Assembly: GCA_036785375.1 (NCBI GenBank)
Contig: JAWMAR010000133.1
Location: 2,232,001 to 2,296,000, forward strand
DNA length: 64,000 nucleotides
Origin: Leucoraja ocellata
Lineage: Eukaryota
Direction: 5' to 3'
This document shows positions 15,720 through 41,350 of the stretch, piece by piece. A program made the position numbers and the translations under genes. How positions within the stretch are numbered: the stretch's first letter is position 1; each line of letters opens with the position of its first letter. A model generated the notes under the pieces. It saw only the letters and a list, made by a program, of their open reading frames with translations, did no database searches and was not told the DNA's origin.

Positions 15720-15853
15720 ATTAGTGACTACCTTACATTTATAACTTTGAGTTGTGGCTGCCTTTATTAACATCCTCCAAGGTTAGTGCTTAATAATGTA
15801 GATGTGAAGATTCCCTTTGCATAAAATGAAAAACGTAGCAATCATCAACTCAC

Positions 15854-16906: not shown

Positions 16907-17025
16907 CTCCCAATGGACAGAGTAAGTAAACAGCACATCATTTTCTTTGTTGGGGTCAATTTCTTGGGGAAGTGAGCCGGCTGCTTCAGGCAGGATACAA
17001 TTTCCCTTTTCATCCATTTTTAGAT
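16907..17025 (-). CDS. TM9SF4: TM9SF4 exon 7
   Basis: 119 nt, ttttag|..|gtgagt; [14 protein letters not shown]...[21 protein letters not shown]. Confidence 0.95.
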
Positions 17026-18867: not shown

Positions 18868-18991
18868 CTTGATATTTAACACTTTGTGGTACGACCTCAA
18901 AGCGAACAACTCTATAGGTCGGTTCCTGGTCTATTTCTATTTCTTCTTTGTGATAATAGACAATGAAAGAGAGATGATTGTGGAGGTAGAA
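18868..18991 (-). CDS. TM9SF4: TM9SF4 exon 6
   Basis: 124 nt, tttcag|..|gtaagt; [14 protein letters not shown]...[16 protein letters not shown]. Confidence 0.96.
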
Positions 18992-19159
18992 CTGAAATAT
19001 AAATCGGCATTGAAGCAAACAGGTTATGTGCTTGATGTAAAACAAACACATCCACTACACACTGCATTCACCTGTACTACACAATCACTATTTATTGTAG
19101 AGCATTTCTTGTTTTCATCATCCAGGGCGAAGCAACTAAAGTGGTTCACTGAGGATTGC

Positions 19160-19243
19160 TATTTAGTCTCCTCCCAGTTGCCCCTCATTGGAAGTGTTAG
19201 TTATTTAGTCTCCTCCCAGTTGCCCCTCATTGGAAGTGTTAGT
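19160..19243. repeat. Perfect 42-bp tandem duplication
   Basis: 2 x TATTTAGTCTCCTCCCAGTTGCCCCTCATTGGAAGTGTTAGT. Confidence 0.95.
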
Positions 19244-19248
19244 TGTAC

Positions 19249-19378
19249 CTTATTGTTGTCAATGAATCCCAGCCTGTAACCATGTTCAAACTGCACTTCC
19301 TTTTCTTTCTTTTTGTCATTGTCTTCAGAATTTGGGTAAAATTCTAATCGCGTTGCAACAGGCAAGTTATCTGCAATC
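19249..19378 (-). CDS. TM9SF4: TM9SF4 exon 5
   Basis: 130 nt, ttacag|..|gtacaa; [14 protein letters not shown]...[14 protein letters not shown]. Confidence 0.96.
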
Positions 19379-20063
19379 CTGTAAGCAGGCAAGTATAATT
19401 CATGCATTGAGAAAGGGAATGCATCGAGCATTAGTTCAACATATCAGACAATGTATAGTCTTAGTTGTCAGATGTGATAAAACAGCAGAAAAGTCTAACT
19501 TTGCCCCTTATTCCCCTAGCCGCTAACCTGTGCCTCTGGTTCGCATTACTAATAATCCGTGTTTTCAAAATATCTCCTAGTTTAAGTAAAGCAGATAATT
19601 TGAGATTATAGAGAAAAAGTATAATTTATAAATTGGAAAAAAAAGGCTTCTTGCTATTCTGATTTTTACCACAATTGTTATGTCAGCTCGTGTATAGATA
19701 AGTTAAATTGAAGAAAATTCTTAATAGGTAATAAATCTCCTCAGACAGCAATAGTACAGGCCTGAAGATTTCAAGTTTGATTTCGGATTGTGCCGAAATC
19801 TGAATGTAATCTTAATTGGGGAAGCACTGATTCAGCACCTGCATCCTCTCCTACTATATAAACATGTACACGAACATATGCACACAGGCCTAAAGGAAGA
19901 GCCCCCGTTCAGACGCTGCACAGTAGAACAACAAACCACCAACAGAGATTCTAATACACATGTCAAGGTTCATTCATGAAACTACAGCATTAACACAAAT
20001 CGTTTTAAATATGTAGATTGCACAGGATCAATATACAGTAAGAATAAAAACAGCTTCACGTAC

Positions 20064-20232
20064 AAGTGAATATAATATTCTTCCCGAATCCTTTCTACGA
20101 CCAGTTTACTGTCAGCTATTTTGAACTTGACAGGTTTGTTTGGCTTGTCACAGAGCACTTCACATTTCTTTTCAACGTTCATGTGCATGTCATAGGGCGT
20201 GTTCACAATCCGATCACCCCTCAACACCTCAC
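20064..20232 (-). CDS. TM9SF4: TM9SF4 exon 4
   Basis: 169 nt, aacag|..|gtacgt; [14 protein letters not shown]...[10 protein letters not shown]. Confidence 0.96.
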
Positions 20233-20734
20233 CTGTTCAGTAAGAAACGCAAGAACAATTACTTCTTTGAGATTCCACCTAATGTTTTTAAATATTTAAC
20301 ATTGCTGATGACAGTGGGCGCGAATAAACCAGTAAAACCGTTATTTCAGCGTTGCTAAGGTAATATACCACTATTCATGTTTATAACATGAAGTGGTACT
20401 GACCTTCTATACCTTTCACCACAGTATGTAATAGTCAAAGACTATTAGAATTCAAATCAGAAACACTTTTTTATTTATTAAGTAGTCAATTAATATTTCG
20501 CTGATGATTCCAATCATGAATAAGGCAATTTTTCTCTGAGGGCTATTTAAACAATAAATAGCGAGCATTATCATTATAAAATTTTACTAACATTAAAAAC
20601 AAACACTTTTTCCAAGGATATCTAGCACTAACAGAACAGAGAAATGTCAGCTGGGCCAGATAACTAACTCCAATGCCAGATCAAAAACCACTTTGGAGGA
20701 GATCAAACTACTAAATTAATAACTTCATTGGATT

Positions 20735-21114
20735 TAAGAAAGAACTGCAGATGCTGGGAAATCGAAGGTACACAAAATGCTGGAGAAACTCAGCAGGTGC
20801 AGCAGCATCTATGGAGCGAAGGAAATAGGCAACGTTTCGGGCCGAAACCCTTTGGGTTTCGACCCGAAACGTTGCCTATTTCCTTTGGGTTTTGAGGAAT
20901 TAGTCCAATGAAGTTACACAAAAATGCTGGAGAAACTCAGTGGATACAGCAGCATCAATGGAGCGAAGGAAATAGGCAACGTTTCGGGCCGAAACCCTTT
21001 GGGTTTCGACCCGAAACGTTGCCTATTTCCTTTGGGTTTCGGCCCAAAACGTTGCCTATTTCCTTCGCTCCATAAATGCTGCTGTACCCGCTGAGTTTCT
21101 CCAGCATTTTTGTG
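20735..21114. mobile_element. Compound Penelope-derived foldback element
   Basis: 15-bp TSD TAACTTCATTGGATT (20720-20734 and 21115-21129). Confidence 0.8.
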
Positions 21115-21423
21115 TAACTTCATTGGATTAATTCGTCATATGTTGCAAAACATACTTGGCAGATCTGATTCTGATTAATAGTATTATTACATTGATAAAA
21201 ATACACATTCATGATGATGGTACAATTAAATGAGTACTTTATTTTCAACTGAAATTATGAAATGCATTAAATGCACACGAGGATGAGGCAGCAAATGTAA
21301 TTTTCTAAAATAGTTTTGCTTGATTGTGCTGCATTTAACACATTGGCCACTTCTTTGACCCACTGGTGGAAAGAATGGCAGGCCAATTTATGTGATAAAG
21401 CAATGAATAGATAATAAACTCAC

Positions 21424-21523
21424 CAAGGTTTTCTGCTTTGTATTCAATTTTGTCCGGCCGACAGAAGGGAAGGGAATAATATTCGTACGGGAGCTGTGTC
21501 CGGGAGCTCGTCAGCTTCACAGC
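21424..21523 (-). CDS. TM9SF4: TM9SF4 exon 3
   Basis: 100 nt, cctcag|..|gtgagt; [33 protein letters not shown]. Confidence 0.96.
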
Positions 21524-21982
21524 CTGAGGTTCACACAGGAAAGGTTCAAGGTTTATTATTAAACCACTCGCATGATTATACGATGACTTATTCTGGTGAA
21601 ACCAATCCCACCCTCTGGACTCAATGATTAATAAGGCAATGCAGAACATATATATTAGTTGAAGAAAAGTGCAGACTTTTGATGCAGATAACAGCAAACA
21701 GTCACCTGATCCTCAATGTCAATATCCCAGCAGCTTGTGGAATCAATCTCCATTGATACCTCTTGATTAAAGATGATTTAACCTTTTTTCCATTCTCTCT
21801 CTCCCCCTCTCATTCTCCCCCCTCTCTCTCCCCTCTCTCCACCGTGCCACCCTGTAACACTGCACAGTGGACATCTCCATCTCTCTGTGCAAGTACATCA
21901 AAAGTAAAACCTCGTTAAAGATTCTGAATCATCGCCATTAGAAATAGGGATGGGGATTACATTAGTGAGACAAATCCAGAAT

Positions 21983-22424
21983 AGGCCCATTCTTAGTCAC
22001 GTGTGTGACCAAAAACATGAAAAATTGTGGAATACATCTCTTCTAATTCTGAGAGCATTACAGGTATATTGTTTTGTACTGTGTATATGATTCTTTTTTT
22101 TAAAAAATAGTTTATCAAATGAAATATTAATGTTATGCTGACAATGCTTGTTTAGGGTCAGGGGTCAAATACGACTGGTCACGTGTGTGACCTCACAGGG
22201 AAGCATTTTTTTTCATAACTCAGTTTTATCTTCCATAAACTCTGGCGAATTTTAAAAAGCTAGAATGTTCATATCGTTAGCAGACACGCATTATAGTTGC
22301 GTAGGTGGGGAAATAGCGATGAATAAGATTCATCTCTTGCAAGATTTTTTTTAATGTATTACTTGATGTGATGCCATTTGGTAACGTGTGTGACATTTGG
22401 GTTCACTTTCCAAAGAATGGCCCA
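21983..22424. mobile_element. Putative non-autonomous DNA transposon
   Basis: Imperfect TIR GGCCCATTCT / AGAATGGCCC; three GTMACGTGTGTGAC repeats. Confidence 0.45.
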
Positions 22425-23304
22425 ATACATGTTCCTGCTCTCTGTAAGAACACGTTTTGCAGCAACTAAGTATACAAAGGAAAACTCCCAGCACTAGATC
22501 CCAACTGTTTCAAAACCGTTTGTTAGCGAGAATTCCAATATTCGCAAATATTCTACAATTCAATTTATTTATGTCATAAAGCCTCGGTTAAAGTATTTCA
22601 AACAGTCATGCCACACCTAAAAAATGCTTGAAGATTGCATCTCAACTACAGGAGGCCAAGGTACGTCAGTGTTCAGACATCACATTTTCTGTAGACGTTC
22701 CCGTCTATGTAAACTTCAAGGCTGCCCAGAGCCACGTGAATGAAGACAATGTATTGCACGCCCCAGAAATGAAGTTCTTAATAATTTAAACGTCAACAAA
22801 CATTCTACCTACCTAGCACAAATTCAAAGCAGAAATATGTTTTTTTTTTAATTTTTAATTTTTTTATTTTAATTTTAATTTATTAGAAGCAAATGTACAA
22901 AAATAGAACCAACGGCATATAAAGTAATACAGTTATTATACAGCTTCAATTTTAACTTTTAGCTATAGACAGTAGAAAAGGAAGGAGAGAAAGCAAGAAA
23001 GAGATAAAGTGAAATGTGCAAAGATTTAACCCCTAGGCTACCAGTGGTGTGGCCTTAGAGTGAATAAATGAAAGAAAGAGAGGAATAGAAAAAATAAGAA
23101 AAATAAAAGGACAAAAAGAGAAAGAAAGAAAAAAGTGGTGATATATATGCCTGCCTCACATCCCTCCCCAGAAATATGTTGAGAAGAAAATCAAATAATC
23201 ATATGCACACTTGTAATGAGCTCTTAACACGGATCATAGAGAGCGACTAGCAATAGCCACATCTTTAAAAGTGAATAATACCGAATGTTATAACAGGTAT
23301 TTAC

Positions 23305-23418
23305 CTTAATTTCCACAGGATGATTTTGATGAAAGTCAATTGGTGCAACACCCGGTACATAAAACGTAGATGAAGTGTGCAGTTCTAAGAGAAGCACCAA
23401 TGGCCAAATTGACATTGC
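23305..23418 (-). CDS. TM9SF4: TM9SF4 exon 2
   Basis: 114 nt, ttttag|..|gtaaat; AMSIWPLVLLLELHTSSTFYVPGVAPIDFHQNHPVEIK (signal peptide plus conserved N-terminus). Confidence 0.95.
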
Positions 23419-23482
23419 CTAAAACAAAAGAATTAAAGCTGGATTAATATCTATCTACTCTACTAAACAATTATTTTCAACA

Positions 23483-23720
23483 GGTAGACAAAAGTGCTGG
23501 AGAAACTCAGTGGGTGCAGCAGCACCTATGGAGCGAAGGAAATAGGCAATGCGTTGGGCCGAAACCTGAAGGAAATAGGCAACGTTTCTGGCCGAAACCC
23601 TTTGGGTTTCGGCCCGAAACGTTGCCTATTTCCTTCGCTCCATAGATGCTGCTGCACCCGCTGAGTTTCTCCAGCACTTTTGTCTACCTTCGATTTTCCA
23701 GCATCTGCAGTTCCTTCTTT
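23483..23720. mobile_element. Penelope-derived foldback element just upstream of exon 2
   Basis: Inverted arms, 2+1 units, imperfect TSD of about 17 bp. Confidence 0.75.
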
Positions 23721-26099
23721 AACAAATTATTTCCAACATGTTTGCCAGTATAAATCAATATTTTGATAAACATTTAATAATGTAAAAACAAGTGGTGCAT
23801 TGGTTAGTGATCAAATACAGAGTGGGTACAGTGGTTAGCACTGTGGCTTCACAGCTCGAGAGACCCAGGCTCGTTCCTGATCGAGCCTCTGGAGTTTGCA
23901 TGTTCTCCCTGCTATAGTTTTCTTCCACATGCCAAAAGATTTGCCGGCTGTTAGGTTAATTGTAAATTGCCTCTAGAGTAGCGTCATGGAAGTTGGGATG
24001 TGCAAGCATGGGTTGGTGGATGGGGATGTGAGATGAATGATGGGCTTCATGTATATACGTGTTTGAAGGTCAACATGTACGGTGTTTAGGTTTGTTTTAA
24101 TTGAGTTTATTGTTATGCAACATTATGTGCTGTGCGTTTCAGCGTTGCAAGACTTTCACTCTCGTTTCCTTCAGTCTCCCCAACACAAACATTCTCTCAC
24201 TTAAGTACCACAATGCATATTTCCCCCCATTTCCAGTTGAGCTTGCAGGAGGAAATGCAGAAAAGTATAGGTATATGGATATGGACAGGTATAAGTATAT
24301 TGAACAGGTATATGGATATGGACAGGTATAAGTATATTGAACAGGTAAATGGATAGGAATGGCTTGGAGAGATTCAGGCCAAATGCAGGTAAATGGGGCA
24401 AGCTTGGATAGGCACCTTAGTTGCATGGAAGAGTCGAGCCAGAGTCAAAAAGTGCAGTATAACTTTCACCCTTAAAACACTGGAACTGCAATAAAACTTT
24501 TGTATGGCACACTTGAAATACATCAACAATTGATCTGCAGTTAGTCCAGCAAGAAATAAGAAGTAAACGTCATTCCCTTATTGCAGGAATAATAAATACT
24601 TAAAGAATACAAAATCAAAAACCTGAACGCACCCGACACATGCCATGCTATGGGACCAATTAGAAATGACAGGCGGAAGAGATCTATTCTCAAAGCTCAC
24701 TGATGATCTCTAGTGGCATAAATCCAGTGGTGCAACATAGAACACCATCTCCAAAACTTCCAACTGAGTTATAATTTCACAATTCACAAATAGAACAGTA
24801 CAGCACAGGAACAGGCACATTACGTCAGTGCCAATTTAAACTGCACATGGTCTATGCACCTCCATTCCCTGTCAATATAAACACATTAATGTTTAATGTT
24901 CAAGAAGGAACTGCAGATGCTGGAAAATCGAATGGAGACAAAAATGCTGGAGAAACTCAGCGGGTGAGGCAGCATCTATGGAGCGAAGGAAATAGGCAAC
25001 GTTTCGGGCCAACGTTTCGGGGGGGGGGGGGGCAGGACGAAGAAACGAAAAGGTGGAGCCAGTGGGCTGAGGGAGAGCTGAGAAGGGGAGGATTAAGAAC
25101 ATTCAGGAAAACACTGAACATTTCAACTCTGTACGTAGGGATCGAATGCAAACTAGGCAACTTCCACTGAGCAGCAATCCATCCTACAATCGACACTACA
25201 ATAGTCCGTATCGGAAATTAAAAACAACAGGGGTGCTCTAAGATTGAATCAAGAGACAATACTGGTTCAAAACTAAGCTAATTTTACTGCCTGACCACAT
25301 ACAAGCTGAAAATATTAATAATGTGACAAATGTCCTACAAAAAAGTGAAATAGGATGCTTAAGAACACAGGCTAAAAGCTAGAGCTGAATTTCATGCACA
25401 AAGCTATCACCTTACATTACATATACTTTACGTACACATTTCTATCTGAAGCAAAGAAGTCGATGCATTAAATCACAGAAGGTACACAAAAATGCTGGAG
25501 AAACTCAGCAGGTGCAGCAGCATCTATGGAATGAAGGAAATAGGCAACGTTTCGGACCAAAACGTTGCCTATCTCCTTCACTCCATAGATGCTGCTGCAC
25601 CCGCTGAGTTTCTCCAGCATGTTCGTGTACCTTCTGAGATTTAATGCATCTGCAGTTCTTTCTTAAATATTAAATCCAGATCAGCTTTGGACACAACATC
25701 CTTCAAGTCTCACACATTTCAGGATGACAGATTGAAATAACATGGTCTATACAACAGTTGGGATAATGTTGATTCACTGGAACGCACCCAAGACACAGAC
25801 ACAGATATAAACAGTTTCAATTGAAGGCTGATTACAAGATGTTCCTCTCAATTCAAAGCTACGCAATGCAATTTGAGTGAAATATTCTCTCCACTGAGAT
25901 ATGATTACAACTTTTTGCAACTCAAACCAATTCCAAGTAAAACATGTTTGGAGATATTAAACCAAAATTATTATTCATGTCAGACAAAATTATTTAAACA
26001 ATTCACTACAGTTTACAAATCACTTTATCCATTTACACTATTCACAAATATTGTTGCCTTTAATCATTATTTAATTATTATATATTATTATTATTATTA

Positions 26100-26630
26100 T
26101 TAAATTTTATTTCCTCGTCATCCGTTATTTGTTCTGTAATAAAATATCCAAGATATTTTACCTTATTACAGACACTAAGATTGTCAAAGAATTTAAAATC
26201 AAGACATTTTGGACATTTATCTTCATTGATTCTACAGATCATAACAGCACTCTTACCAGCATTATAATTGATATTATGTTCCACACCATACAGAGAACAT
26301 ATAGTAAGGAGCTGCTGGAGACCAGCGCTAAATGGACTAAAGACCACAAGATCATGTGCATAGATAATATGATTCAGTAAAATATTACCAATCATGCACC
26401 CGGTATTACACGCTTTCAATTGCCTGGACAGATCATCAATATAAAGATTAAAAAGGACTGGGGACAAAATTCCTCCTTGTCTAACACCATTGCTAACCCC
26501 AAATGGGGCTGAGACCCTATTGCCCCATTTTACTTGCATAGTCTGGTGGGCATACCAGTAAGCCAGGATTCTCACAATCTATTTAGGCACCCTTCTTTGA
26601 CTCAATTTAACAAACAACTTTCCATGAATC
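26100..26630 (-). mobile_element. Non-LTR retrotransposon RT-domain fragment (clade uncertain)
   Basis: GVRQGGILSPVLFNLYIDDL..HIIYAHDLV (YADD mutated)..VKYLG. Confidence 0.8.
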
Positions 26631-27634
26631 CCGTCCTACTGAAACAAAATGGCACTAATAATTGGACATATTTCAAATGTACTTAAATCAAGAAATGAAA
26701 TACAGAAATATAATGACATCTCATTTTACGCAGTCAAAATTACTTTTTGCAACTTCGAGCCAGCACCGCCATTCAATGTGATCATGGCCTATCATCCCCA
26801 ATCAGTACCCCGTTCCTGCCTTCTCCCCATATCCCCTGACTCCGCTATCCTTGAAGAGCTCTACCTAGCTCTCCCTTGAAATTATCCAGAGAACCTGCCT
26901 CCACCACTAAGGCAGAGAATTCCACACACTCACAACTCTCTGTGAGAAAAAGTGTTTCCTCGTCTCCGTTCTAAATGACTTACCCCTTATTCTTAAACTG
27001 TGGCCCCTGGTTCAACGAATTCAACAATATTAAAATCTTAAACTAATTAAGAATTGGGCAAGAACTCAAATGGTTCTGCAGGGAATGAGGATATGGATCA
27101 TGTGCAGGCAGATGAGATTAGTTTATCTTGATATTGTGTTCGGCATTGATATTGTGGGCTTAACGATACGAAACTTTATTCATCCCCAGAGAGAAATTGG
27201 TCTGCTGACAGTCATCATGCAACAAGCTACACGAAAACTTGAAATTAAAATTAAATTAAAAGTGAGAAAAAAAAGAAAAAGACATAAGGGCATGTTCCTG
27301 TGCGATAAGTGTTCTGTACACTATAAAATGGATATTGAAACAATGGATGAAACTGATGAAGGGTCTCGACCTGAAACGTCACCTATTCCTTTTCTCCAGA
27401 GATGCTGTCTGACCCGCTGAGTTACTCCAGCTTTTTGTGTCTATCTTCGGTCTAAACTAGCATCTGCAGTTTCATCCTACAGAAGAAATGTTGACCCTGG
27501 AGACTGTAGATGCTGGCACCTTGAGCAAAAAACAAGGGTCCCGACCCATATCCCTCCAAGGTGCTACATGACCCATTGAGTTCCTCCAGCAGTTTGTATT
27601 TCTACAGAAGAAATGTTAGCAGGATTAAGAACGC

Positions 27635-28001
27635 ACCGTGGCAACTACACTTACCCCCCTGCAGGACCTATACACTAGAAGGTGCAGATCCAAAGCCAGC
27701 AAGATATTGAAGGACCCCTACCACCCCAGCAACGGACTGTTCCAGTTCCAGCTGCTACGGTCAGGCAAGGGCCTCCGCTGTCACTCTGCGTTAAACAGAG
27801 AGGATGAGACGGAGTTTCTTCCCACAGGCCGTCAGGACTGTAAACTCCCATCTCACCAGGGACCAATTTACTGTTGTGTCTTTTTTTAAATGTAAATACT
27901 GGTTCTGTTCTGTAGTTTTGCATAATCCCGCAGGCATTGCCACTTTCATTTCACTGTACATCTCGTATGTGTATGTGACAAATAAAGTTGACTTGACTTG
28001 A
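27635..28001 (+). mobile_element. Rex1/Babar LINE 3' fragment (same family as 421-1045)
   Basis: LQDLYTRRCRSKASKILKDPYHPSNGLF; ends AATAAAG(TTGAC)n. Confidence 0.85.
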
Positions 28002-29499
28002 GATGAGCCACGACAGCACTGGGACATTTTTGCAGGCAGCCTGCAGGAGTGCACCATCTGGAATGCCTTTGCTCCTACCCTTGCCCCTGACTTCAGAAAT
28101 CTAACCTCCTGCCACATAGACAGACTTTGAAAAGGGTGGCACCAGCAAAGAGGACTGAGAAGCGCTAGCCTAGGGAGGCAGGGGAGCGCCTAGGGGACTG
28201 TTTCAAATCAATGGAATGAATCATGTTCAAGGATTCGTGACCTGGATGAATACCAAGTTGACAATAAACGTGTGGATGAATGTGTACCTAACAACATACC
28301 AAGTCTTCCCCAACCAGAATATCCGGCTGAACCGGGAGCTCCATTTCCTGCTCAGAGATGCATCACCAGCCTTACGGAAGTTTAGGACTGATAATTGCAC
28401 CATACAAAAAGTCAGGTGTGAGCACCTGAGGGCCATCGCGAGCAGTGACAATTCCAAACTTAGCTGGTGTCCTTAACGAATGTGGCAGGATGTGAACACT
28501 ATCACTTCCAATGAGGTGAAACTGGGTAGTGTAAGTGGCAATGATGCCTCACTTCCAGAGGAGCTCAATGTCCTTTTATGTACACTTTGAAAGGGGAAGC
28601 AACGAGACACCTACACGAACCCTGACAACCCTACATGGTGGCACAGCGGTAGCGTTTAGTTTTAGTTTTAGAGACACAACGCGGAAAAAGACCCTTTGGC
28701 CCACCGAGCCCGCGGCAACCAGCGATCCCCGCACATTAACATTGTCCTACACTAGGGACAATTTACACATACGCCAAGCCAATTAACCTACAAACCTGTA
28801 TGTCTTTGGAGTGTGGGAGGAAACCGAACATCTCGGAGAAAGCCCACGCGGTCACGGGGAGAAGGTACAAACTCCGCACAGACAGCACTTACAGTCAGGA
28901 TCGAACCTGGGTGTCCGGCACTGCTCTCCCTCTGCGCCACTATGCCACCTCACTGCTTTACAGCGGCCATGTTCGATCCTAACTACGGGCGGGTACTGTC
29001 TATACGGAGTTTGGATGTTATCCCCATGACCGCATGGGTTTTCCCCGGGTGCTCCAGTACACTCCCTCACTGTAAGTCCACCTCAAGGCTGCGTGCTTAG
29101 CCCCCAGCTCCGCTCTCTTTACATCCATGACTGTACGGTTAAGCACAGCATTCTACAAACTCACTGATGACACCACTGTTGCTGGCGGATCACAGGCGGT
29201 GATGACTCAGCATACAGGAGGGGTCAAGGAAAGAGCGTTCACCTAGCGGCCCTGTTTCCACCAATCTTTCCGCCTCCGCGCACAAGAAGCGACAAGACAG
29301 ACACGATTGTATGCAGATGCCGAGATGTGTGTTCAGCTCTGGCTGAACAACTTCTAATCTTGTGTGTGGACTCGATAAGAAGAAGAAGCATACAGGAGGA
29401 GCGAGACATGGTTGTGAGGTGTCGCTATAGCAACTTTCTGCTCAACATCAACAAGACCACAAAATAAAAGTTGATTTCAGAAAGAGAAAGACACCCAGC

Positions 29500-29837
29500 A
29501 ACTGGTGATGTCCATGAATCGCAGACTTCAAGCAGTCATTGCATGCAAAGGATATGCAACAAAATTACTAAACATGACTACTTTCATTTACACGACATTG
29601 CTGTGTCCCAAACATTATGGTGCCCTGAAATGGGGGGGGGGGGGGGAAACTATGTATAAACACAGCGGTAATTTCTACATGGTGAAACCAAAATGTATAA
29701 AAATGGCCTTTGTTAAAATCTGACAATGTGCACTTTAACCACATGTGATTGTTTTCTATTACATATCTCAAATTGTGGAGTACAAAGGCAAATAAATAAA
29801 TGATGGGTCTTTGTCCCAAACATTATGGAGGGTACTG
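29500..29837 (+). mobile_element. Tc1/mariner 3' fragment with IR/DR-type right end
   Basis: MSMNRRLQAVIACKGYATK transposase C-terminus; TGTCCCAAACATTATGG repeated near 29604 and 29812; ends ACTG|TA. Confidence 0.8.
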
Positions 29838-29867
29838 TATTAACATTATCCTACACTAGGGACAATT

Positions 29868-30157
29868 TAGAAACATAGAAAATAGGTGCAGTAGTAGGCC
29901 ATTCGGCCCATCGAGCCTGCACCGCCATTCAATGTGATCATGGCTGATCTTCCAACTTCGTATCCTGTTCCTGCCTTCTCTCCATACCCCCTGATCCCTT
30001 TAGCCACAAGGGCCACATCTAACTCACTCTTAAATATAGCCAATGAACTGGCCTCAACTACCTTCTGCGGGAGAGAATTCCAGAGATTCACCACTCTCTG
30101 TGTGAAAAAAGTTTTCCTCATCTCGGTCCTAAAAGATTCCCCCCTTATCCTTAAACT
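29868..30157 (-). mobile_element. CR1 LINE 3' end
   Basis: [14 protein letters not shown]; TTCTATGT tail. Confidence 0.85.
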
Positions 30158-32031
30158 CCTTAATACATTTACATTTATTCCAAGCCAAACCTGCACATAT
30201 TTGGAGTGTGGGAGGAAACCGAAGATCTCGGAGAAAACCCACGCAGGTTATGAAGAGAACGTGCAAACTCCCGTAGTCAGGATCAAACCCAGGTCTCTGG
30301 CGCTGAAAGGCAGCAGCTATACCGCTGCGCCACTGTGCTGCCCCAGGTCAGTGATATTTTCTTTGGAAATAATTCCTGGGTAGGTGTCTTGTCTCTGATT
30401 TACAGTTTCATATTTCTAAAATAAAGCATCATTGCTTTCTCCTAAAGTACTGCTGACGCTGAAAATAGTGAAATACTCTGAAGGTTAGGCAGCATTTGGC
30501 AGAGAGAGAGAAACAGATTTAAAGGGTTGGATTTGTGACCTTGCAGCAGGATTGGAAAAACTTGGAAATTGGTTTTAACTTCTAGAGAAAAAGATCAGAG
30601 CTGATTACAACAAAAGGGAAGGTCTGTGATTGGAAGAAAACCTAAAGATTGATTTAAACAAGTGGTGTGTTAGCTGAAGGAAGATGTTGAAGGCTTGTGT
30701 CGTTTGTCATAAATTGCTGATTCAGGTGTTTTTCTGGAAGACAGAGGGGGGAGGGAGAGAGAGGGTGCGGGAGAGAGGGGGGGGGAGGGAGAGAGGGGGG
30801 GAGAGAGAGAGATTATCTTGCAATTTCCAGTGGCCACCAACTAACCCAGCAATGTGCACATGTTTGGGATGTGGGTGGAGCCCCAAGCACCCAGAAGAAG
30901 CGGGGAGAAGAGGCAGCAGCTCTACTAGCTGCGATCCTGTGCCGGCTTGTGCCATTGTGGCGCCCCAATAGAATGAGAGTTGGTAATTAATTATTGCAGA
31001 GGGGGAATGTGAATTCAAGACTATATTGGCAAATGATCTTGGTAATTTCTTCATCTGACATTGACAGCAGGGGCGATCTCAATTCTGCGCTGTTAGATGA
31101 TCTGTCCTGCAGATACGATAGCAAATTCTGTTTTCAAGTTCAAGTGTATTTGGGTTTTTTTGAAGAACAGAACATTATCCTAGCTCCTGTACCCCCACAT
31201 TTGAGTTAACAAAATAGATAATTGCTGTCGTGGAGTCTTGTTTTGGACCATAATTATGTTGCTTCTTGGCAATGGATGATATCTGAAATGGTTGAGGTTT
31301 GTTGAAAAAGTATGTGGGCCAAAACACAAGGCAGATTCATTCTTATACCTGCATTCTTTGACTTTCAGATTGTATTGCTAAGATGCTCAGTTTTACTAAA
31401 TGCTGCCTTCCCCACCTGTAATGAACGTTTAGGTTTAAGTCTTTTTTAATTCTGTTAGAAAGATGAGCTCCTTAAGGTCTAAAAAGATTTAAAGAGAGTT
31501 AGATTTAGCTCTTAGGGCTAATGGAATCTAGGGATATGGGGAGAAAGCAGGAAGTGGGTACTGATTTTGGATGATCAGCCATGATCATATTGAATGGGAG
31601 GCTACTGCTGCACCGATTTTTCTAAGATTTGCAAATCTTTCAAATATCCTGAAGAAGAAAAGTAATCTATAAGCAGGCATGATTTTAAGTGTTCATTCTC
31701 AGCATTTAGCTGTATTGTAACTAACTTGCATGCAGGTTTATAGGTTAATTGGCTTCTGTAAATTGCCCCTAGTGTAGAGAGTGGATGAGAAAGCGGGGTA
31801 TCTAGTGTGAATAGGTGATTGATGGTCAATGTAGATTCGGTGGGCTGAAGGACCTGTTTCCATTCTATCTCTTTTAAGAAAAACGTCAAAAATTAAGCAT
31901 TTTCTTCATATTGTAACAAATTCAGTCTCCACAGTTAATGTTTTGTGGGTGAAATATTCGCCTCATTACTTATTTTGATTTGGGGTATTATCTCATTGAT
32001 GCTGAATTGAACTGAATTGTCATATTTTTAG

Positions 32032-32150
32032 ATCTAAAAACGGATGAAAAGGGAAATTGTATCCTGCCTGAAGCAGCCGGCTCACTTCCCCAAGAAATTG
32101 ACCCCAACAAAGAAAATGATGTGCTGTTTACTTACTCTGTCCGTTGGGAG
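32032..32150 (+). pseudogene. Duplicated TM9SF4 exon 7
   Basis: 119 nt, intact AG/GT, 2 substitutions (M>T at 32041, H>R at 32143). Confidence 0.92.
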
Positions 32151-33089
32151 GTGAGTATGTTGTTCGAGATCAATGATCCTAATGGAACCCAACTTGCAGT
32201 AGGACTCGTATCTATCGTGATTACTGATTCAGTAAGAATGTTCGAGACACGGGCTGAGAACTCATCACAAATGCAGGAAATTACAACTTAAATGCAATAC
32301 TATTGTGGAGAAGTGTAAAGCTAATGGTGGCATTGTTGTGAAAATGCATTTGGTGCATTCATGTCATTTGTGAAATGAAATCCGTTATCTTTATCCTTTC
32401 TGACCCACAAGCATGTGATTGACTTTGAAATATGTTGCCAAGCCACTCGGATGTATTCAAAGCAATTAGGGTTAGGCAATGCAGCGGTATCGAGGATCTA
32501 AATGATTTTATAACTAAATATTTCTGCAGGAATTTCTTTAGCCAGAGGGTGGTGAATCTGTGGAATTCATTGCAACTGATGGCTATGGAGGCCAAGTCAT
32601 TGGGTATTTTTACAGCAGAGATTACAGGTTCTAGATTAGTAATGGCATCAAAGGTTACGAGGAGAAGGCTGGAGAATGAGGTGGAGAGGGAAAAATAGAT
32701 CGCCCATGATCGAATGGCAGAGAAAACCTGATGGGCCGAATAGCCTAATTCTGCTCCTATGTCTTGTGGTCTTACGCTGCATTTAAATGAGTCATTTGCT
32801 TTTAATAGGCCGACTCCAAACTTGAAGTGATTGGGAGGTTTCATAGGGTTAAAGTTTGTCTTTAAAATTCAAGAAATATGAACCACAAAACTATGTAGTG
32901 ATGATCTTTTATTTCTTTTATGGTACACTAGAAAACATCTGCTTTTATTTGTATGTATGAACATGTGTCAACATGACCTGCAAGTTGTCTTGCGATGGAC
33001 TTCTGTATCACTAGTCTGGCCTGGGGTCATGGCAAGTTAAAATTGCTCAATAGCAAGTTAACATCCAAATCATTAACTTGTATTTTCAG

Positions 33090-33201
33090 GGTGGTCCTAT
33101 TAAATGGGCATCTCGCTGGGACACTTACTTAACCATGAGTGACGTGCAGATACACTGGTTCTCCATTGTCAATTCCGTTGTTGTTGTTTTCTTCCTCTCT
33201 G
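33090..33201 (+). pseudogene. Duplicated TM9SF4 exon 8
   Basis: 112 nt, intact AG/GT, 1 substitution (S>G at 33093). Confidence 0.92.
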
Positions 33202-33588
33202 GTGAGTTGATGATTGCTACGTTTTTCATTTTATGCAAAGGGAATCTTCACATCTACATTATTAAGCACTAACCTTGGAGGATAAATGTACGGTAGTCAC
33301 TAATAAAATTAATGAAGTATTCAAGGGGAATATAGTTTTTTTTAATCAAAGGTATAGGAGACCCCATAGCAGAAGCGTCCATGTTGCGGGAGCTGGAAAC
33401 TGGAAGTATCCTGAGCTAATTCTGCTACCACCATCATCTATTGCAACATTGCCACTGAGTGCCATCGTCCGTCTTATGCCTCCTCTTGGAAGTTGGCGTC
33501 CTTTTCAGGATGGCCGATGACAGCGATGTCAACATTTTAAACATGGAAGATGGATGCCAAAGAAGAAAGTTATAGGTAAAAAGTAGAA

Positions 33589-33850
33589 GATAGACAAAAA
33601 TGCTGGAGAAACTCAGCGGGTGCAGCAGCATCTATGGAGCAAAGGAAATAGGCAACGTTTCGGGTCGAAACCCAAAGGGTTTCGGCCTGAAACGTTGCCT
33701 ATTTCCTATTGCCTATTTTCTTCCCTTTTCTTTCCAGCATCTATGGAGCGAAGGGAATAGGCAACGTTTCGGGTGCTGCTGCACCCGCTGAGTTTCTCCA
33801 GCATTTTTGTCTACCTTCGATTTTCCAGCATCTGCAGTTCCTTCTTAAAC
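33589..33850. mobile_element. Penelope-derived foldback element (rearranged)
   Basis: 15-bp TSD AGGTAAAAAGTAGAA (33574-33588 and 33851-33865). Confidence 0.8.
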
Positions 33851-34211
33851 AGGTAAAAAGTAGAACTAGTGCAAGACATTTGATGCAAAAGATGGGATTG
33901 TGTATAATGGCATCTTAAATAAAAATAAACAACTTTTGAATTGATTAGATGAAGAAGGGTTTAAAAGTGTTTATGTGCCACGTCGGTAGGTTAAGATGGA
34001 TGACTTGCTTCAATGTTCGGAAGACACTGTCTCTATACGATAAATAAAATGCTGCCTTTAACTGTAATGGGACTACCAGGGTATCAGTGCCTGGTACGGC
34101 AATTCCAAAGCATACAAACACAAGATGCGGCAGAGAGTTGTGGTTCAGCCTCGTCCTTCCCGGCACTACCCTCCATACCATTAAAGGCGCCCACACAAGA
34201 TGCTGTCTCAA

Positions 34212-34590
34212 GAATGGGTCGACTGGGCTTGTATTCACAGGAATTTAGAAGGATGAGAGGAGATCTCATGGAAACATATAACATTCTTAAAGGATTGGAC
34301 AGGCAAGATGCGGGAAAAATGTTCCCGATGTTGGGGGAGTCCAGAACCACAGTTTAAGAATAAGGGGTCGGCCATTTAGGACTGAGATGAGGAAAAGCGT
34401 TTTCACCCAGAGAGTTGTGAATGTGGAATTCTCTGCCACAGAAGGCAGTGGAGGCCAATTCACTGGATGTTTTCAACAGGGAGTTAGATTTAGCTCTTCG
34501 GGCTAAAGGAATCAGCCATGATCATATTGAATGGCGGTGCTGGCTCGAAGGGCCGAATGGCCTACTGCTGCACCTATTTTGCCATGTTTC
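34212..34590 (+). mobile_element. CR1 LINE 3' fragment nested in an older Rex1-like fragment
   Basis: RLGLYSQEFRRMRGDLMETY motif and 3' tail. Confidence 0.75.
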
Positions 34591-35865
34591 TAAGAAGCGT
34601 CATCTATCAAAAAGGATTCTCACTATCCGGATCATACCCGTTTCTTGCTGCTATCAATGAGCAGGAGGTACAGAAACTGAAGTCCCACACCACCAGGTCC
34701 AGCAACAGCTGCTTTCAGATGACCGTCAGGTTCTTTAACAGACCCACACAACCGTAATCCTACTTCAGCCATGGAACACTACACACCAGCCTTTGAACTA
34801 CCATTTTTACACATCTTTTTTCTTTTTGATGCCTTGCACAAAACGTATAACTAATGTTTTTGTCTGTTGTCTGAGTCTATCTGCCCACGATGCTGCTCGA
34901 TCAAAGGTAGACAAAAGTGCTGGAGAAACTCAGCGGGTGCAGCGGCATCTATGGAGCGAAGGAAATAGGCAACGTTTCGGCTCGAAACGTTGCCTATTTC
35001 CTTCGCTCCATAGATGCCGCTGCACCGGCTGAGTTTCTCCAGCACTTTTGTCTACCTTCGATTTTCCAGCATCTGCAGTTCCTTCTTAAACAACATTCTG
35101 CTCCATCAAGATTCTTGTTGTACCTGCAGCTCACAATACTTTTGTATTGGACAATAAAATAGTAGACTTGACCAAGACTGAATTGGATGAGTCTTGCTTT
35201 CATGTGGAAATGGATAAAGAGGTGCAGCGTGAAAATAAAACAACATGTAAATGTTGGAGATCTGGGATAAAACAGCAAATGCTAGAAACACTTAGCAGCT
35301 CGGACAGTAACTGTGGAAGGTGAAACAATCAACATTTCAGGTCGAAGGGCCTTCCTCAGACTCCACAGTTGATGCCAGACATGCGGCTTGTCTTCAGCAT
35401 TTTCAGTTTTTATTAAATGGACAGAGAAATTCATTAAGAGATAGAATTTCCATGATTTCTTCGAGCTTTACAGTGCAGTTGCATATTGTGCATGTTTTAA
35501 AAAGTATCAATTCACGACAGTGTTCAATATCCAATTATATATAAATATTTTATGATGAGATTTCCCTTCACAATTACAACTTTTACTCTGCAATGCAAGA
35601 TGTCCCAAAGCTACTACTTCCTCCTTCACCCTACCCAATCCTTCCTTTGTCTTATTTACAACATTTGCAATTTATGTTAGATGTAGGCAATTTTTTTTTG
35701 ATATATCGCCATGGCATTCTAAATTATGTGCACTGCCTTTAGTTTCATAATAACAACAAATAATTGAGAGCAGAAAGATTAAAGGTGAGTGGGAAAAGAT
35801 TCAAAAGGAAATGGAGGGGCAACATTTTGGGGGTGGGTGTATGGAATGAGCTGCCAGAAGAGGTA

Positions 35866-36046
35866 TTTATGAAGGAACTGCAGATGTTGGAAAATCGGTA
35901 GACAAAAATGCTGGAGAAACTCAGCGGGTGCAGCATCATCTAAGGAGCGAAGGAAATAGGCAACGTTTCGGGTCGAAACGTTGCCTGTTTCCTTCGCTCC
36001 ATAGATGCTGCCTCGCCCGCTGAGTTTCTCCAGCACTTTTGTCTAC
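35866..36046. mobile_element. Penelope-derived foldback element (similar copies at approx. 25477-25668, 34905-35090, 37211-37427)
   Basis: 15-bp TSD CTGCCARAAGAGGTA. Confidence 0.75.
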
Positions 36047-39000
36047 CTGCCAAAAGAGGTAGTTGCGGCAGATACTATAACAACATTGAATAGCTATTTA
36101 GACATGTATATGGATATGAAAGGTGCAGAGGATATATATGGGCCAAACGCAGGTAAACAGTTCAAGGTATCACATAGCTAGATTGAAATAAAGCCAAAGT
36201 TCTGAAAAATGAATTAAAGATCAAGCCAAATGTCCACGCAGCCAAATAATGAAAAAACAATTGACATCACTTCCTGTCACATTTCTGGATTCAGCAGATT
36301 TATTACATTGGTTCAAGTGTTATCAAGCCTTGACTTTAAAGTGATTCAGAAGAGAAATAAAAATCAGGACAGATCCTAGGCAATTATTTTCTAAGAGCAT
36401 ATGTAAAAATAATAAGCGACATTCCTGTAATTTAAGGTTAAAATCAAGGACTTTTCAGATAGAGTAGACTGCTAATGGATGGAAATGTCTTGCAATCGTT
36501 CAAGGAAGCTCTGGATGCCAAATAGTATTTTTGGATGGAAGATAATGGCCTCCCACGTTAAGTCTCACCATCAGGAAGTAAATGATGGTTAGGCACTTAC
36601 GCAAGAAAGAATTAATGAAAATAATTCAGGAGTCATATTTTAAATATATATTCTCAGTCAAAAATGCACAGATCAACTAGATGGGGTGGGAGATTGCAAC
36701 CTTCACGTGGTCCGCCCTGTTTCGACCAGGCCTGCAAAATCAAATAGAACAAGTTGTCCTTCAACTTCAGGCTGTGCACGCCATACGCAAGAAGAAGAAG
36801 ATTAATTAGATAATAAGATGGTTTCCCTTGAACATTCATTATTACACAATACCACTTGGTGTGTAGCTCCTGCAGATAGCAAAATAAGAATACATTTTCA
36901 AATGAATTTTCAAGTACAAGCACAACACCTTCAATAACTTTGACATATGGGGGAAAAAACGATGATTATTGGCAATAATGCTTGACAACACACCAACAGT
37001 TGTATCCACATACTTCACACAACCATATATCCAGAATTGCTTAGACACAGATTTGCTAATTCGGCTCACCGATGATGAATGTGTGTAAACAAGACAGGCA
37101 ACTACCACACACGTGTATCATTCGGTTAATAAAACATCTAGAAAATCATTTCATATACAATCTAGCAATTTAGCTATATTTTTCAACACAAGATCCAAAC
37201 TCTTTAAGTGAAGGTAGACAAAAATGCTGGAGAAACTCAGGGTTTGAGGCAGCATCTATGGAGCGAAAGAATAGGTGACGTTTCGGGTCGAGTCCCTTCA
37301 GGACCCTTCTCGACCCGAAACGTCACCTATTCCTTCGCTCCACAGATGCTGCCTCACCCGCTGAGTTTCTCCAGCATTTTTGACTGCCTGTGATTTTCCC
37401 AGCATCTGCAGTTCTCTTTCTTAAACAACTCTTAAGTGAAGTATTTTCAAGAACAGCAAGTGTGTAATCTGATACACCAAATGCTGCCCAACCTGCTGAG
37501 TTACACCAGCATTTTGTATCCATCTTTGGTATCAACCAGCATCCTTTTGATTACATTAATCAGCCTTTGAATACAGGCAGATTGTACATTGACAGTTGAA
37601 ACGACTTATCTCTTTACATTACAGCTATAACTTTTACGGTAATGTTTGGGTAATCATGAGAACTCCCTTCAGGAAAACACAATCAGTTCACAAATTGCTT
37701 CTCCAAATATTAAACATTCTAACCCGAGTAAATTCTGACAAATTCCCAGAATCACCAAAGGAAATAAATTTATCACACCTCAGAAACACCACTTGCAAAT
37801 AACTCCACACAATCAGAGGTGCCTCCAATGGGATTAAAGCAACTAAAGAATGCCCACACATAAATAACCTTGAAGGCAGCAATCCATTAAATAGAAAATT
37901 GCAGATATAAGACACCGCAGTTGCTAGAATTTTGAGCAAAACACAAAGTGCTAGAGGAACTCAGCGGGTCAGGCAGTCTGAAGAAGGGTCCCAACCCGAT
38001 AAGTTATTTGTTCATCCCCTCCCCAGATGCTGCCTTACCTGCTGTGTTCCTCCAGCACTTTGTGTTTTCCTTGTAATAGAAAACTATTATGCAGCTCAAC
38101 CCACCATTTTTAATGCAAACTTGCATCAACTATTTACTTACAACTATTTAAAAATAGCAATCTTGTTGTGTAATACCAGGCTTGTTAAACACTGTCTTGA
38201 ACCCCTGAAAAGTACTTAGATATATGCAAAATACAATGGGTGAAGTTACTGCCTTGGATTCACTCCACGAATGGTTTACATGTAGGGCGTGGAACAGTTT
38301 GACCAGCAGTCCTTCAGTTTAAATAAAGTGTGGGAAAGGCTGATGGGACAAGACATAGGAGATGCTGTGAAGGAGTTAAAGGGATTGGGCCCCCTCTGCT
38401 CCTGGATATTCAGGGGCTTTGACCACCGGCTACAGGGGCTTTGATCGCCCCGAATGCGGATGGTAGAGGAATAAGTTTGAATTTTATTGCCTTCCATCAC
38501 AGAGAGGAATGTGGAATCCACTGTGGTGGATGTTTATGTTAACATTTATGTGGTTGTGTGTCTTGTTGCTTTTCACTTAGTGTGGCCGTATGGTAACTCA
38601 AATTTCACTGTACCTTAACTGGTACATGTGACAATAAACTAGCCTTGAAACCTTGAACCTTGGAACTTTGAGTCTGGTGGGGACATTTCACAGATAAGGG
38701 CAGGGATATCACCCCAGGGACCACATGAGTGGAAAGGGTGCTTTGTGTAAAGACAGATGCAAACACTAATGCGTATGTCACAATTAAATGTACAGGCGCA
38801 AGATCAAAGTTCACACCAGGAACAGCGCGGAACAGTACAAAACAGGAACAGGCCCTTTGAGCTATGATGTCTGTGTGAAACATGATGCGAAACGAATCTA
38901 ATTTGCTTACTCGAGATCCCTATCCCTCCATATCGATCTGCCTATCCAAAAGTCTCTTAAATGCCACTAATGTATCTGTCACCCGCTGAGTTTCTCCTGC

Positions 39001-39294
39001 ATTTTTGTCTATCTTCAATGTATCTGTCTCGATCATCACTCCCCACATTGTGATCCAGCCACCTATACTGTATGTAACAGCTACTTTAAACTTTGTCCCT
39101 CACCATAAAGCTATTCCCTCTAGGCTATGACATTTTCACTTTTAGAGGAAAAAGGTTCCGACTATCTACCTTACCTCTGCTTTTCAATTTAATATACATC
39201 AGCCTTCCCTCAGCCTCCAGAGAAAACAATTCACTTATGCCCAACATCTCATAGATAATACCCTCCAATCCAGGCAACATAAGAATGTTTTTGT

Positions 39295-39597
39295 TTAGTT
39301 TAGAGACACAGCACGGACACAGGCCCTTTGACCCACCTAATCTGCGCTGACCAGCGATCCCCGCACATCAACACTATCTACACACACTAGGCACAATTTA
39401 CATTTAGACCAAGCCAATTAACCTACAAAACTGTACATCTTTGGAGTGTGCGAGGAAGCCGAAGACCTCGGAGAAAACCCACGAAGGTCACAGGGAGAAG
39501 GTACAAACTCTGTAAGGACAGCACCCATAGTCAGGATTGAACCCAGGTCTCTGGCGCTGTGAGGCAGTAACTCTATTGTTGCGCTACCGTGCTGCCC
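39295..39597 (-). mobile_element. V-SINE (HE1-like); further copies at approx. 7305-7570, 28665-28920, 30170-30343, 48838-49115, 51345-51560, 53875-54080 (minus) and 23828-24000 (plus)
   Basis: Full head-body-tail similarity to 17634-17972. Confidence 0.8.
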
Positions 39598-40239
39598 ACA
39601 GTTCAATGTATGAAGAGTTTTCTCAGACACACACGTCTGTATACCTAAAACCTTGACCATGACCACATGGACAAACACCAGGCCACCATCTCCCTGACAG
39701 TTACCGATCTAATCACCTCTGACCACCGCCCCTCCAAACTCCAAACTGATCATTTGCTCGCTTCACACTGCACATTGATTTTCACCTTCCCCAAAATCCA
39801 CGTAGGACTGCCCTGGATGCCCCAATGTTTCAGCCATCTCCTGCCCTACCGTACCCTTATCGTTCATCTTCCTCACACTGCCCATTCATATCACCTATCC
39901 AAAATCCATAAACAGTGAGTCCTGGCAGTCCCATCTCCAAATACCTCAGTCTGAAGTAGGATCATGTTCTCCAGAGATCCAGCCTGACTCACTGTGTTAA
40001 CTCTAGCACTCTGTTTGTTTTGTAAACCAGCATCTGCAGTTTCTTAGATAGACTCAAAATGGTGGAGTAACTCAGCGGGTCAAGTAGCATGTATGGAGAA
40101 AACGGGTAGGTGACGTCTATCCATTGTAAGAGGGAGGGGGGAAGAGAACCGGAGCAAATGCTTTGTTTCCATGCCTCGGTTCTATCTTGTCCCCCCCCCC
40201 CCCCCCCATTACCATGCCAAGTCCCTTCCACTCCCTATA

Positions 40240-40422
40240 NNNNNNNNNNNNNNNNNNNNNNNNNNNNNNNNNNNNNNNNNNNNNNNNNNNNNNNNNNNNN
40301 NNNNNNNNNNNNNNNNNNNNNNNNNNNNNNNNNNNNNNNNNNNNNNNNNNNNNNNNNNNNNNNNNNNNNNNNNNNNNNNNNNNNNNNNNNNNNNNNNNNN
40401 NNNNNNNNNNNNNNNNNNNNNN
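40240..40422. other. Assembly gap
   Basis: N run. Confidence 1.
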
Positions 40423-40810
40423 TACGCACAGATGTGCATAATACATATACACACATATACATATACACACATGTACATAATACACATATACATACAAATA
40501 CACACATGTACATGATACAGATATGCACATACATGTACATACATATATCCACAAATATACATACATATACACACACAGACATATGTACATGTGTTCGGTC
40601 TGAAGAAGGGTCTCGACCCGAAACGTCACCCATTCCTTCTCTCCAGAGATGCTGCCTGACCCGCATCTGCAGTTATTTCTTGTACATACACACATATACA
40701 TATAGATCACATGCAAACACATTTATTTATATATATTTCTAGCTACAGTATATATACAGAGACATTATCCGTGTATTAATAATGCCTGTGTTTATACACA
40801 TACACACATA
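40423..40810. repeat. (AC/AT)-rich low-complexity tract
   Basis: Degenerate ACATAT/ACAC repeats beside the gap. Confidence 0.85.
40597..40630 (+). ncRNA. Minimal hammerhead ribozyme motif
   Basis: GGU-CUGAAGA-A-GGGUCUCGACCC-GAAACGUC-ACC; 3-bp stem I. Confidence 0.7.
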
Positions 40811-40849
40811 TTAATTGCACGAATGCAGTTTATTCAGGGAGCTGACAGA

Positions 40850-41350
40850 CAGTTAAAGGGCAGGGCCCGCGGGCCCGGGACTGGACGGGACGCTGCCGCC
40901 TGATCGTGGTCGCCCGGCCCCGGCTCCCTCCCCACCCGCCGGCCCGGGCGCCTGTTACCCGGTCGGTGCCCCCACCGCACCCCGGCCCACCCCGGCCCCC
41001 CGCTGCCGTCCCCCCGCGGCGGGAAGCGGACGGACACCCCTTGACTCTCACCCTCCTCGCCGCCATCTTGTCGTCCACGTGTCACGCGCGACGTCACCGA
41101 CGTCACTCAGGCCCCGCCCCTCCCCCAAACCCCGCCCTCATTAACCCGGACCCTCCCACAAACCCCGCCCCTCCTCCCAAACCCCGCCCTCCCTTAACCC
41201 GGCCCCTCCCCGCCTCCAAAACCCCGCCCTCCCTTAACCCGGCCCCTCCCCGCCTCCAAAACTCCGCCCCTCCTCGAAACCCCGCCCCTCCTCAAACCCC
41301 GCCTCTCTCACAGACCCCGCCCCTCTCACAGACCCCGCCCCCTCCCCCAG
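40850..41350 (-). promoter_or_regulatory. CpG island / TM9SF4 promoter
   Basis: GC- and CpG-rich around exon 1; about a dozen CCCGCC GC boxes, two TGACGTC CRE-like sites (41090-41106), CACGTG E-box (41076-41081), YY1-like AAGATGGCGGC over the ATG. Confidence 0.85.
41052..41066 (-). CDS. TM9SF4: TM9SF4 exon 1 coding part (MAARR)
   Basis: caagATGGCG Kozak context in CpG island, 15 nt then GTGAGA donor, phase 0 fits exon 2. Confidence 0.85.

Follow-up and report, generated by a model that had tools for sequence, protein, structure and literature searches.

What keeps the middle of a duplicated gene fragment nearly identical to its source while the two ends drift apart? The question is raised by the TM9SF4 gene of a skate, most of which lies on the minus strand of a 64,000-nucleotide stretch of DNA (contig JAWMAR010000133.1, positions 2,232,001 to 2,296,000; hereafter the window, with its first letter as position 1). 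An inverted copy of about 2 kb, at 31602-34065, repeats exons 7 and 8 with the whole of intron 7 between them, the end of intron 6 and the start of intron 8. The positions of exons 1 and 2 (Table 1) place this duplicate inside TM9SF4 intron 1. According to the exon map it is antisense within the TM9SF4 pre-mRNA. Both arms, here called arm A (the gene copy) and arm B (the intron-1 copy), are therefore part of one transcript in opposite orientation, with a loop of 14.7 kb containing exons 2-6 between them.

It is very probable that the central block, or core, has stayed about 99% identical between the arms through occasional non-allelic gene conversion, and that the end pieces beyond repeat insertions dropped out of the exchange and drifted to 9-14% divergence. 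Our verdict is interlocus gene conversion of the ordinary kind, ended by insertions; what is unusual is the antisense arrangement within a single gene. The direct observations behind it are the geometry, the step in identity between the arms, the position of that step at insertions, a second near-identical core in four sequencing runs of other organisms, and a between-arm divergence far below the divergence to the most distant of these, organism E.

Identity step between the arms

In BLAST the inverted match of 15772-17177 with 33283-31888 is 98.08% identical. The flanking matches reach 85.5% on the intron-6 side (17307-17616 with 31892-31602) and 81.0% on the intron-8 side (14837-15031 with 34062-33853), gap columns counted in both. 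Aligned column by column, the core arms differ at 17 of 1391 columns (1.2%) plus two small indels, the intron-6 flank at 26 of 291 (8.9%, with four indels) and the intron-8 far flank at 27 of 198 (13.6%). The two flanks together (53/489, 10.8%) are far more diverged than the core (Fisher p=9e-19, a short near piece with 5/33 differences being excluded). A first-pass annotation of the window had described a core of 31895-33283 against 15772-17175 that is roughly 98% identical, introns included, between clearly more diverged flanks. This description is confirmed, with coordinates right within a few bases. The same annotation held that uniform divergence would speak against it, and the per-column alignment finds that divergence is not uniform.

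The annotation also spoke of a sharp gradient, and here it has to be corrected. To test for conversion, mismatches between the two arms were analysed with run-length statistics and a changepoint permutation. With two changepoints the best model improves the log-likelihood by 45.5 units, and none of 200 permutations gains more than 12.7. Patchiness was not found inside the core, where mismatches are uniform (longest-run P=0.87; internal changepoint P=0.21). The change in identity is a step at insertion clusters, with no gradient. The core's intron-6 edge is a 134-bp insertion in arm A that resembles a short interspersed element (SINE). Its intron-8 edge consists of a 31-bp indel and, beyond it, two insertions per arm; three of these four insertions have target-duplication-like ends. 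The core is the block between the insertion clusters and makes up 73% of the aligned homologous length.

Transposable element (TE) insertions private to each arm had been reported in the annotation. Their positions stand and three of them are pieces of a SINE-like family with 46-89 BLAST matches in the window, but the TE nature of 15310-15719, with only two partial matches, is unproven. The arm-B insertion at 33359-33570 has no other copy in the window, yet shows repeat-level depth in all four runs. The segment 33284-34062, taken as a diverged flank, does contain homologous sequence (about 200 bp plus three pieces of 20-31 bp), but most of it is private insertion.

What if the exons were the part being kept alike? 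Exons occupy 231 of the 1391 core columns (17%) and hold three differences, all non-synonymous, against 14 in 1160 intronic columns (p=0.75). Core exons are thus no more identical than core introns. The GC content is 38.6-38.8% in the core against 33-37% in the short flanks, a difference that carries no significance test and is confounded by the exons and a TE fragment.

Some details of the core edge are worth recording. The indel (33281-33286 / 15741-15771) looks compound: a contig of organism D contains 25 of the 31 bp before running on into arm-B sequence, a contig of C aligns to 33286 and one of E to 33283. A 6-bp deletion in both arms may be common to C and D.

The second copy in other organisms

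Four DNA-type public runs from four studies, out of 24 runs listed, one each of organisms B, C, D and E (B is run X2, C is X6 and E is X14), were compared by aligning all contigs to 30900-34500, that is, to arm B only. In these data the contigs are collapsed, the arms are unphased and depth is one figure per contig. The duplicate is found in contigs of all four organisms. Depth over single-copy contigs is 15-20 in B, 40-41 in C, 28 in D and 9-11 in E, and the ratio of core to single-copy depth is 2.49, 1.68, 1.97 and 1.53, respectively. Nine of the 11 core contigs are at or above 1.5 times single-copy depth. The expected ratio is 1.0 for one copy and 1.03 for two copies 10.8% apart. For arms as divergent as the species, it would be 1.47 in D and 1.18 in E, and the excess over these values suggests conversion in more than one lineage. 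The depth of 2.3-2.7x in organism B may reflect a third copy elsewhere.

The X2 contig covering 32745-33418 has arm-B letters at 32830, 32843, 32896 and 33093 and then runs into arm-B-private sequence. At the outer junction, single contigs in X2, X6 and X14 join the arm-B flank to unique intron 1 across 33828/33851-34237. In run X11 (organism D) there is depth at this junction and no bridging piece among the contigs listed. Flank contigs differ from arm B at 4/391 (B), 10/408 (C) and 26/389 (E) positions, each below the 27/198 seen between the arms (p of 4e-10, 3e-7 and 0.009). Because these junction contigs are closer to arm B than the arms are to each other, the duplication is older than the split from E. 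The annotation had called it old, and the bridged junction bears this out. The arm-B flank diverges by 1.0-6.7% between species, against 1.4-4.6% in unique intron contigs, which is an ordinary rate.

The contigs also differ at their ends near this junction. That of E has 128 unaligned letters before 33851, and those of B and C start inside the SINE at 33828. The insertion at 33586-33850 may be absent in organism E.

Age of the core and shared changes

Ages are relative here, with no absolute dates. Skate tribe relationships are given in the available part of PMC8303890. Organism E differs from the window at 55/1017 positions in single-copy contigs (5.4%; p=3e-9 against the core's 1.2%) and at 36/1011 in core contigs (3.6%; p=2e-4). 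Arms that did not exchange sequence would be expected to differ by at least as much as the species do. The observed 1.2% is far below E's divergence, which supports gene conversion. In other words, paralogs are closer than orthologs with respect to E, borderline so for D and not significantly so for B and C. On these comparisons, the last homogenisation would, on average, date from about the time of the split from the nearest relatives. The four arm-B-specific letters of the X2 contig are common to the window and organism B. The annotation had proposed a centre "recently or repeatedly" homogenised. Conversion, probably more than once, stands, whereas "recent" does not, given a between-arm divergence that is not below that to B or C and the arm-B letters common to B.

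Changes common to both copies point the same way. The core rows scored number 20, seven at sites where the window arms differ and 13 where they agree. At three of the 13 agreeing sites (32965, 33023 and 33221) both window arms and B have one letter and C, D and E all have another. In addition, C and D have a 10-bp piece at 32423 that neither window arm contains, with no reading for E there. A rough estimate (850 scorable sites, branches of 1-2%) puts the probability of parallel change at two or more sites at 0.0015-0.022, and parallel change at 32965 and 33023 seems unlikely. Lineage-specific changes common to both copies are thus present, with their polarity taken from unphased contigs and distance rooting. 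What if C, D and E instead form a clade? A single change in one arm could then yield the shared letters. However, the C and D contigs with those letters have 2.0-2.1x depth, which under this rooting would mean conversion in those lineages.

A number of points weigh against the conversion reading. Depth is noisy: single-copy contigs scatter by about 15%, B lies above 2x (2.3-2.7), and low ratios occur in two of the 11 core contigs (1.32 in C, 1.10 in E). On the right, the outer junction lies inside a repeat and is without a bridging contig. The between-arm 1.2% is not significantly lower than the divergence of the window from B (1.4%, p=0.72) or C (1.8%, p=0.29), and only borderline against D (2.4%, p=0.054; p=0.39 for D's two core-only contigs). 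The age argument therefore rests mainly on E, the outgroup position of which comes from distance alone. The shared-change counts come from 20 core rows among 40 of 240 rows listed, with repeat-covered parts of the core unscored, and site 33221 is a CpG in the window, a weak case explicable by independent decay. Finally, the arms are unphased in every other organism.

A probable conversion mechanism limited by insertions

How might conversion maintain the core? The arms, 14.7 kb apart, would serve as mutual repair templates. Non-crossover outcomes would survive. A crossover between the arms would invert exons 2-6, destroy the gene and be purged, so that only conversions would persist. The end pieces left by the insertions, just 200-300 bp long, would be too short for further conversion, and divergence would follow. 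In the part of PMC3924837 available, conversion is described as needing similar sequences, typically of a few hundred nucleotides, and as ending once TE insertions or large indels break pairing. The core edges at insertions and indels and the short end pieces match these limits. The process would be episodic, because the 1.2% that remains between the arms corresponds to the split from the nearest relatives, and it likely occurs in more than one lineage. It would require no selection on RNA pairing. Gene conversion is a known process, and here it is probably neutral.

Alternative explanations

It is improbable that conversion is real and that selection maintains the core for the sake of a long pre-mRNA duplex that would tune TM9SF4 output, by in-frame skipping of the 231-nt cassette, by A-to-I editing or by back-splicing of exons 2-6. 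The setting would suit it. Both arms are in one transcription unit, their match scores highest among the 165 inverted pairs of the gene span (2415 bits against 783 for the next), exons 7 and 8 are a phase 1-1 in-frame cassette, and the copy persists in four of four runs. However, persistence needs no selection once conversion runs, and the core edges track insertions rather than exon limits. The exon and intron difference rates given above are no sign of preferential pairing over regulated exons, and neither they nor the core limits show sequence signs of selection for pairing. Likewise, the annotation's statement that duplex potential is high "exactly over exons 7-8" was too strong for exons that are a minor part of the core, even though the pairing potential is a geometric fact. 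Moreover, arm A is transcribed 6.2 kb past the exon-2 acceptor, by which time intron 1 could already have been spliced out. No Rfam family was found in 14000-42000. Exons 7-8 are present in 11 of 11 aligned skate proteins (four named RefSeq, seven Logan), a weak point given that the search query was exon 8. A single large replacement, be it re-duplication or one long conversion tract that reset the core once without repeated exchange, is also improbable. Mismatches are evenly spread inside the window's core, as one event would leave them, and the four arm-B letters common to organism B mean that 32830-33093 has not been overwritten since that split. Nevertheless, the depths in D (1.97x) and E (1.53x against 1.18x expected) suggest homogenised arms in other lineages, and if a single event had preceded all splits, the arms should differ at least as much as the species do. 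Arm B also has R255 against the H255 common to named Leucoraja and Amblyraja proteins, though at a CpG site. A single event within the window's own lineage could still hold.

Perhaps the near-identity is only apparent. A haplotype duplicate is hard to credit, as is a core that collapse or polishing has overwritten, and this artefact reading is already largely refuted. The assembly does have estimated gaps elsewhere (N runs at 40240-40422 and 60806-60934), the arm-B state T221 also occurs in expressed skate proteins as an allele would, and none of the four runs is known to be the window's own sample. But both arms are free of N runs, the X2 contig carries four arm-B letters into arm-B-private sequence, core depth is about double in four runs from four studies, flanks and insertions private to each arm are found in other organisms, and G at 33093 is in none of 17 aligned proteins. 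The annotation had argued against a simple haplotype mis-assembly and had named a collapse or polishing artefact as the result that would overturn it. Contig depth and the arm-B contig support the former and make the latter unlikely. There is similarly very little to recommend a young core duplication that landed beside unrelated repeat copies, or flanks that mutate faster. The intron-6 flank is indeed partly repeat-derived (17341-17466 and 17583-17620), but the flanks are collinear and include non-repeat sequence, and the arm-B flank evolves at the ordinary rate noted above. Occasional conversion thus remains the preferred account of the core.

Known systems and significance

Converting inverted repeats for which a crossover would invert and break a gene are familiar from F8 (int22h and int1h) and IDS/IDSP1, where the second arm lies outside the gene. 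Here, in contrast, a single pre-mRNA contains both arms, one of which is coding. The arms are also 98.8% identical, not above 99.9% as in those systems. Y palindrome P6 is alike in having inverted arms homogenised by conversion (PMC3723533, as far as the available part goes). Interlocus gene conversion as described in the part of PMC3924837 available shares low divergence between nearby duplicates while orthologs diverge, and a stop at insertions, but the partner here is a two-exon fragment inside the same gene and not a second gene. Mosaic concerted evolution is described for the gene pairs BMP8A/B, DDX19A/B and TUBG1/2, which in the available part of PMC2720389 have >97% identity over two consecutive exons and the intron between, beside divergent segments. 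BMP8A/B is inverted, as the arms are here. These are, however, whole-gene pairs up to 1 Mb apart, and their converted regions show raised GC; the higher GC of the TM9SF4 core is confounded as noted above. Back-splicing and loop-out skipping driven by inverted repeats (PMC6769675 and PMC4479058, from the parts available) are similar in that complementary intron 1 and intron 6 sequences flank exons 2-6. The difference is that the complement here also covers exons 7-8 and their splice sites.

No literature was found on a TM9SF4 duplication in skates or, among the papers listed, on this locus or its exact geometry, in a search with subscription journals and supplements outside its range. The process is known. 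The locus is a clean, small case of concerted evolution inside one gene, with edges defined by insertions and a species series able to date conversions. There is also a practical side. Skate short reads from TM9SF4 exons 7-8 map to two places, and paralogy can lie behind variants called there (T/M221, R/H255, G/S at 33093). A bolder idea, to which we would give only a slim chance, is that rajids have a built-in antisense template for a TM9SF4 coding cassette that would have been kept in step for the age of the group, would write alleles such as T221 back and would fold the pre-mRNA, tuning splicing, editing or an exon 2-6 circle. If the editing or skipping part were true, DNA repair would be maintaining a cis-antisense element against the gene's own exons. 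If intron-to-exon conversion were true, a silent intronic copy would be feeding amino-acid variants into a conserved housekeeping gene.

Residues 221 and 255

Two of the exonic differences fall in exon 7, at codon 221 (17016 in arm A, 32041 in arm B) and codon 255 (16914 and 32143). The gene has M221 and H255. The T221 and R255 of arm B are the states found in Rhinoraja and two stingrays. Among nine Leucoraja/Amblyraja-like proteins (Rhinoraja excluded), residue 221 is M in five and T in four, and H255 is present in all nine. Both changes are CpG transitions. T221 in a working gene could come from conversion by the intronic copy, but recurrent CpG decay explains it equally well. Among the 120 matches listed, 27 proteins were checked and none has an arm-B residue from skate read-through of an arm-B exon.

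The TM9SF4 locus and other features

The assignment to TM9SF4 (a nonaspanin of the EMP70 family) rests on the exon-8 peptide, which matches Pfam EMP70 (PF02990) and vertebrate TM9SF4 proteins, and on orthology to named TM9SF4 proteins. Exons 2-14 were placed in the window by tblastn. Exons 1-8, joined at GT-AG boundaries, give 294 stop-free codons. Their product is identical at 293 of 294 residues to Leucoraja erinacea XP_055508639.1 (one difference), has no differences from L. erinacea P0126 over shared residues, and has three from Amblyraja radiata and 15 from Rhinoraja longicauda. These few differences from rajid TM9SF4 proteins indicate that the window is from a rajid skate. Exons 7 and 8 together are 231 nt, and their loss keeps the frame and removes residues 218-294. 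A search of PDB with the exon-8 sequence gave no matches.

Table 1. Positions of the TM9SF4 exons, the two arms and the arm-private insertions in the window
Feature	Position	Strand	Remarks
TM9SF4 exon 1, coding part (MAARR)	41052-41066	-	GC-rich promoter region
TM9SF4 intron 1	23419-41051	-	between exons 1 and 2; holds the duplicate
TM9SF4 exons 2-6	18868-23418	-	637 nt; tblastn and GT-AG boundaries; in the 14.7-kb loop between arms
TM9SF4 exon 2	23305-23418	-	tblastn, GT-AG
TM9SF4 exon 3	21424-21523	-	tblastn, GT-AG
TM9SF4 exon 4	20064-20232	-	tblastn, GT-AG
TM9SF4 exon 5	19249-19378	-	tblastn, GT-AG
TM9SF4 exon 6	18868-18991	-	tblastn, GT-AG
Exon 7, functional copy, 119 nt	16907-17025	-	M221 and H255
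Exon 8, functional copy, 112 nt	15854-15965	-	EMP70 match
Arm A core (gene copy), from the end of intron 6 through exon 7, intron 7 and exon 8 into the start of intron 8	15772-17172	-
Arm B core: inverted intron-1 copy, antisense to TM9SF4 pre-mRNA	31893-33283	+	1.2% from arm A; about 2x depth in four runs
Exon 7 copy, intact AG/GT, T221 and R255	32032-32150	+	arm B
Exon 8 copy, intact AG/GT	33090-33201	+	arm B; G where the gene has S (33093)
Arm A intron-6 flank	17307-17616	-	8.9% from arm B 31602-31892
Arm B intron-6-derived flank	31602-31892	+
Arm A intron-8 far flank	14834-15031	-	13.6% from arm B 33853-34065
Arm B intron-8-derived flank and outer duplication junction	33853-34065	+	single contigs bridge in runs X2, X6, X14
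SINE-like insertion, 134 bp, private to arm A	17173-17306	.	marks the core's intron-6 edge
Two insertions private to arm A	15062-15719	.	with 31-bp indel 15741-15771, the core's intron-8 edge
Arm A insertion, SINE-like	15062-15292	.
Arm A insertion, unproven origin, target-duplication-like ends	15310-15719	.	only two partial BLAST matches
Two insertions private to arm B	33359-33850	.
Arm B insertion, 6-bp target duplication	33359-33570	.
Arm B insertion, SINE-like, 14-bp target duplication	33586-33850	.

A whole-gene head-to-head duplicate was considered and rejected within the window: second strong matches are limited to exons 7-8 (tblastn; low-copy self-BLAST), and the other TM9SF4 exons are without a second copy. 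Exons 2-6 are flanked by complementary intron-1 and intron-6 sequence, a layout that could favour back-splicing. A TM9SF4-like protein of Sinocyclocheilus rhinocerous (P0001) has a tandem internal duplication starting at the exon-7 region; it belongs to an unrelated lineage, and an artefact of annotation or assembly may be the cause.

Just upstream of exon 1, the GC-rich promoter region (40860-41350) has tandem GC-box-like repeats. The N runs mentioned above, of 183 and 129 bases, are outside both arms, the first lying in intron 1 between the duplicate and exon 1. At about 26150-26640 intron 1 has a degenerate AT-rich stretch that by eye resembles a fragment of a long interspersed element (LINE) reverse transcriptase. 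Many copies of the abundant SINE-like repeat are head-to-head or tail-to-tail palindromic composites that make local hairpins throughout the gene. Such composites lie at 3840-4121, 20730-21132, 23476-23726, 33580-33855, 34889-35094, 48490-48808 and 50398-50651.

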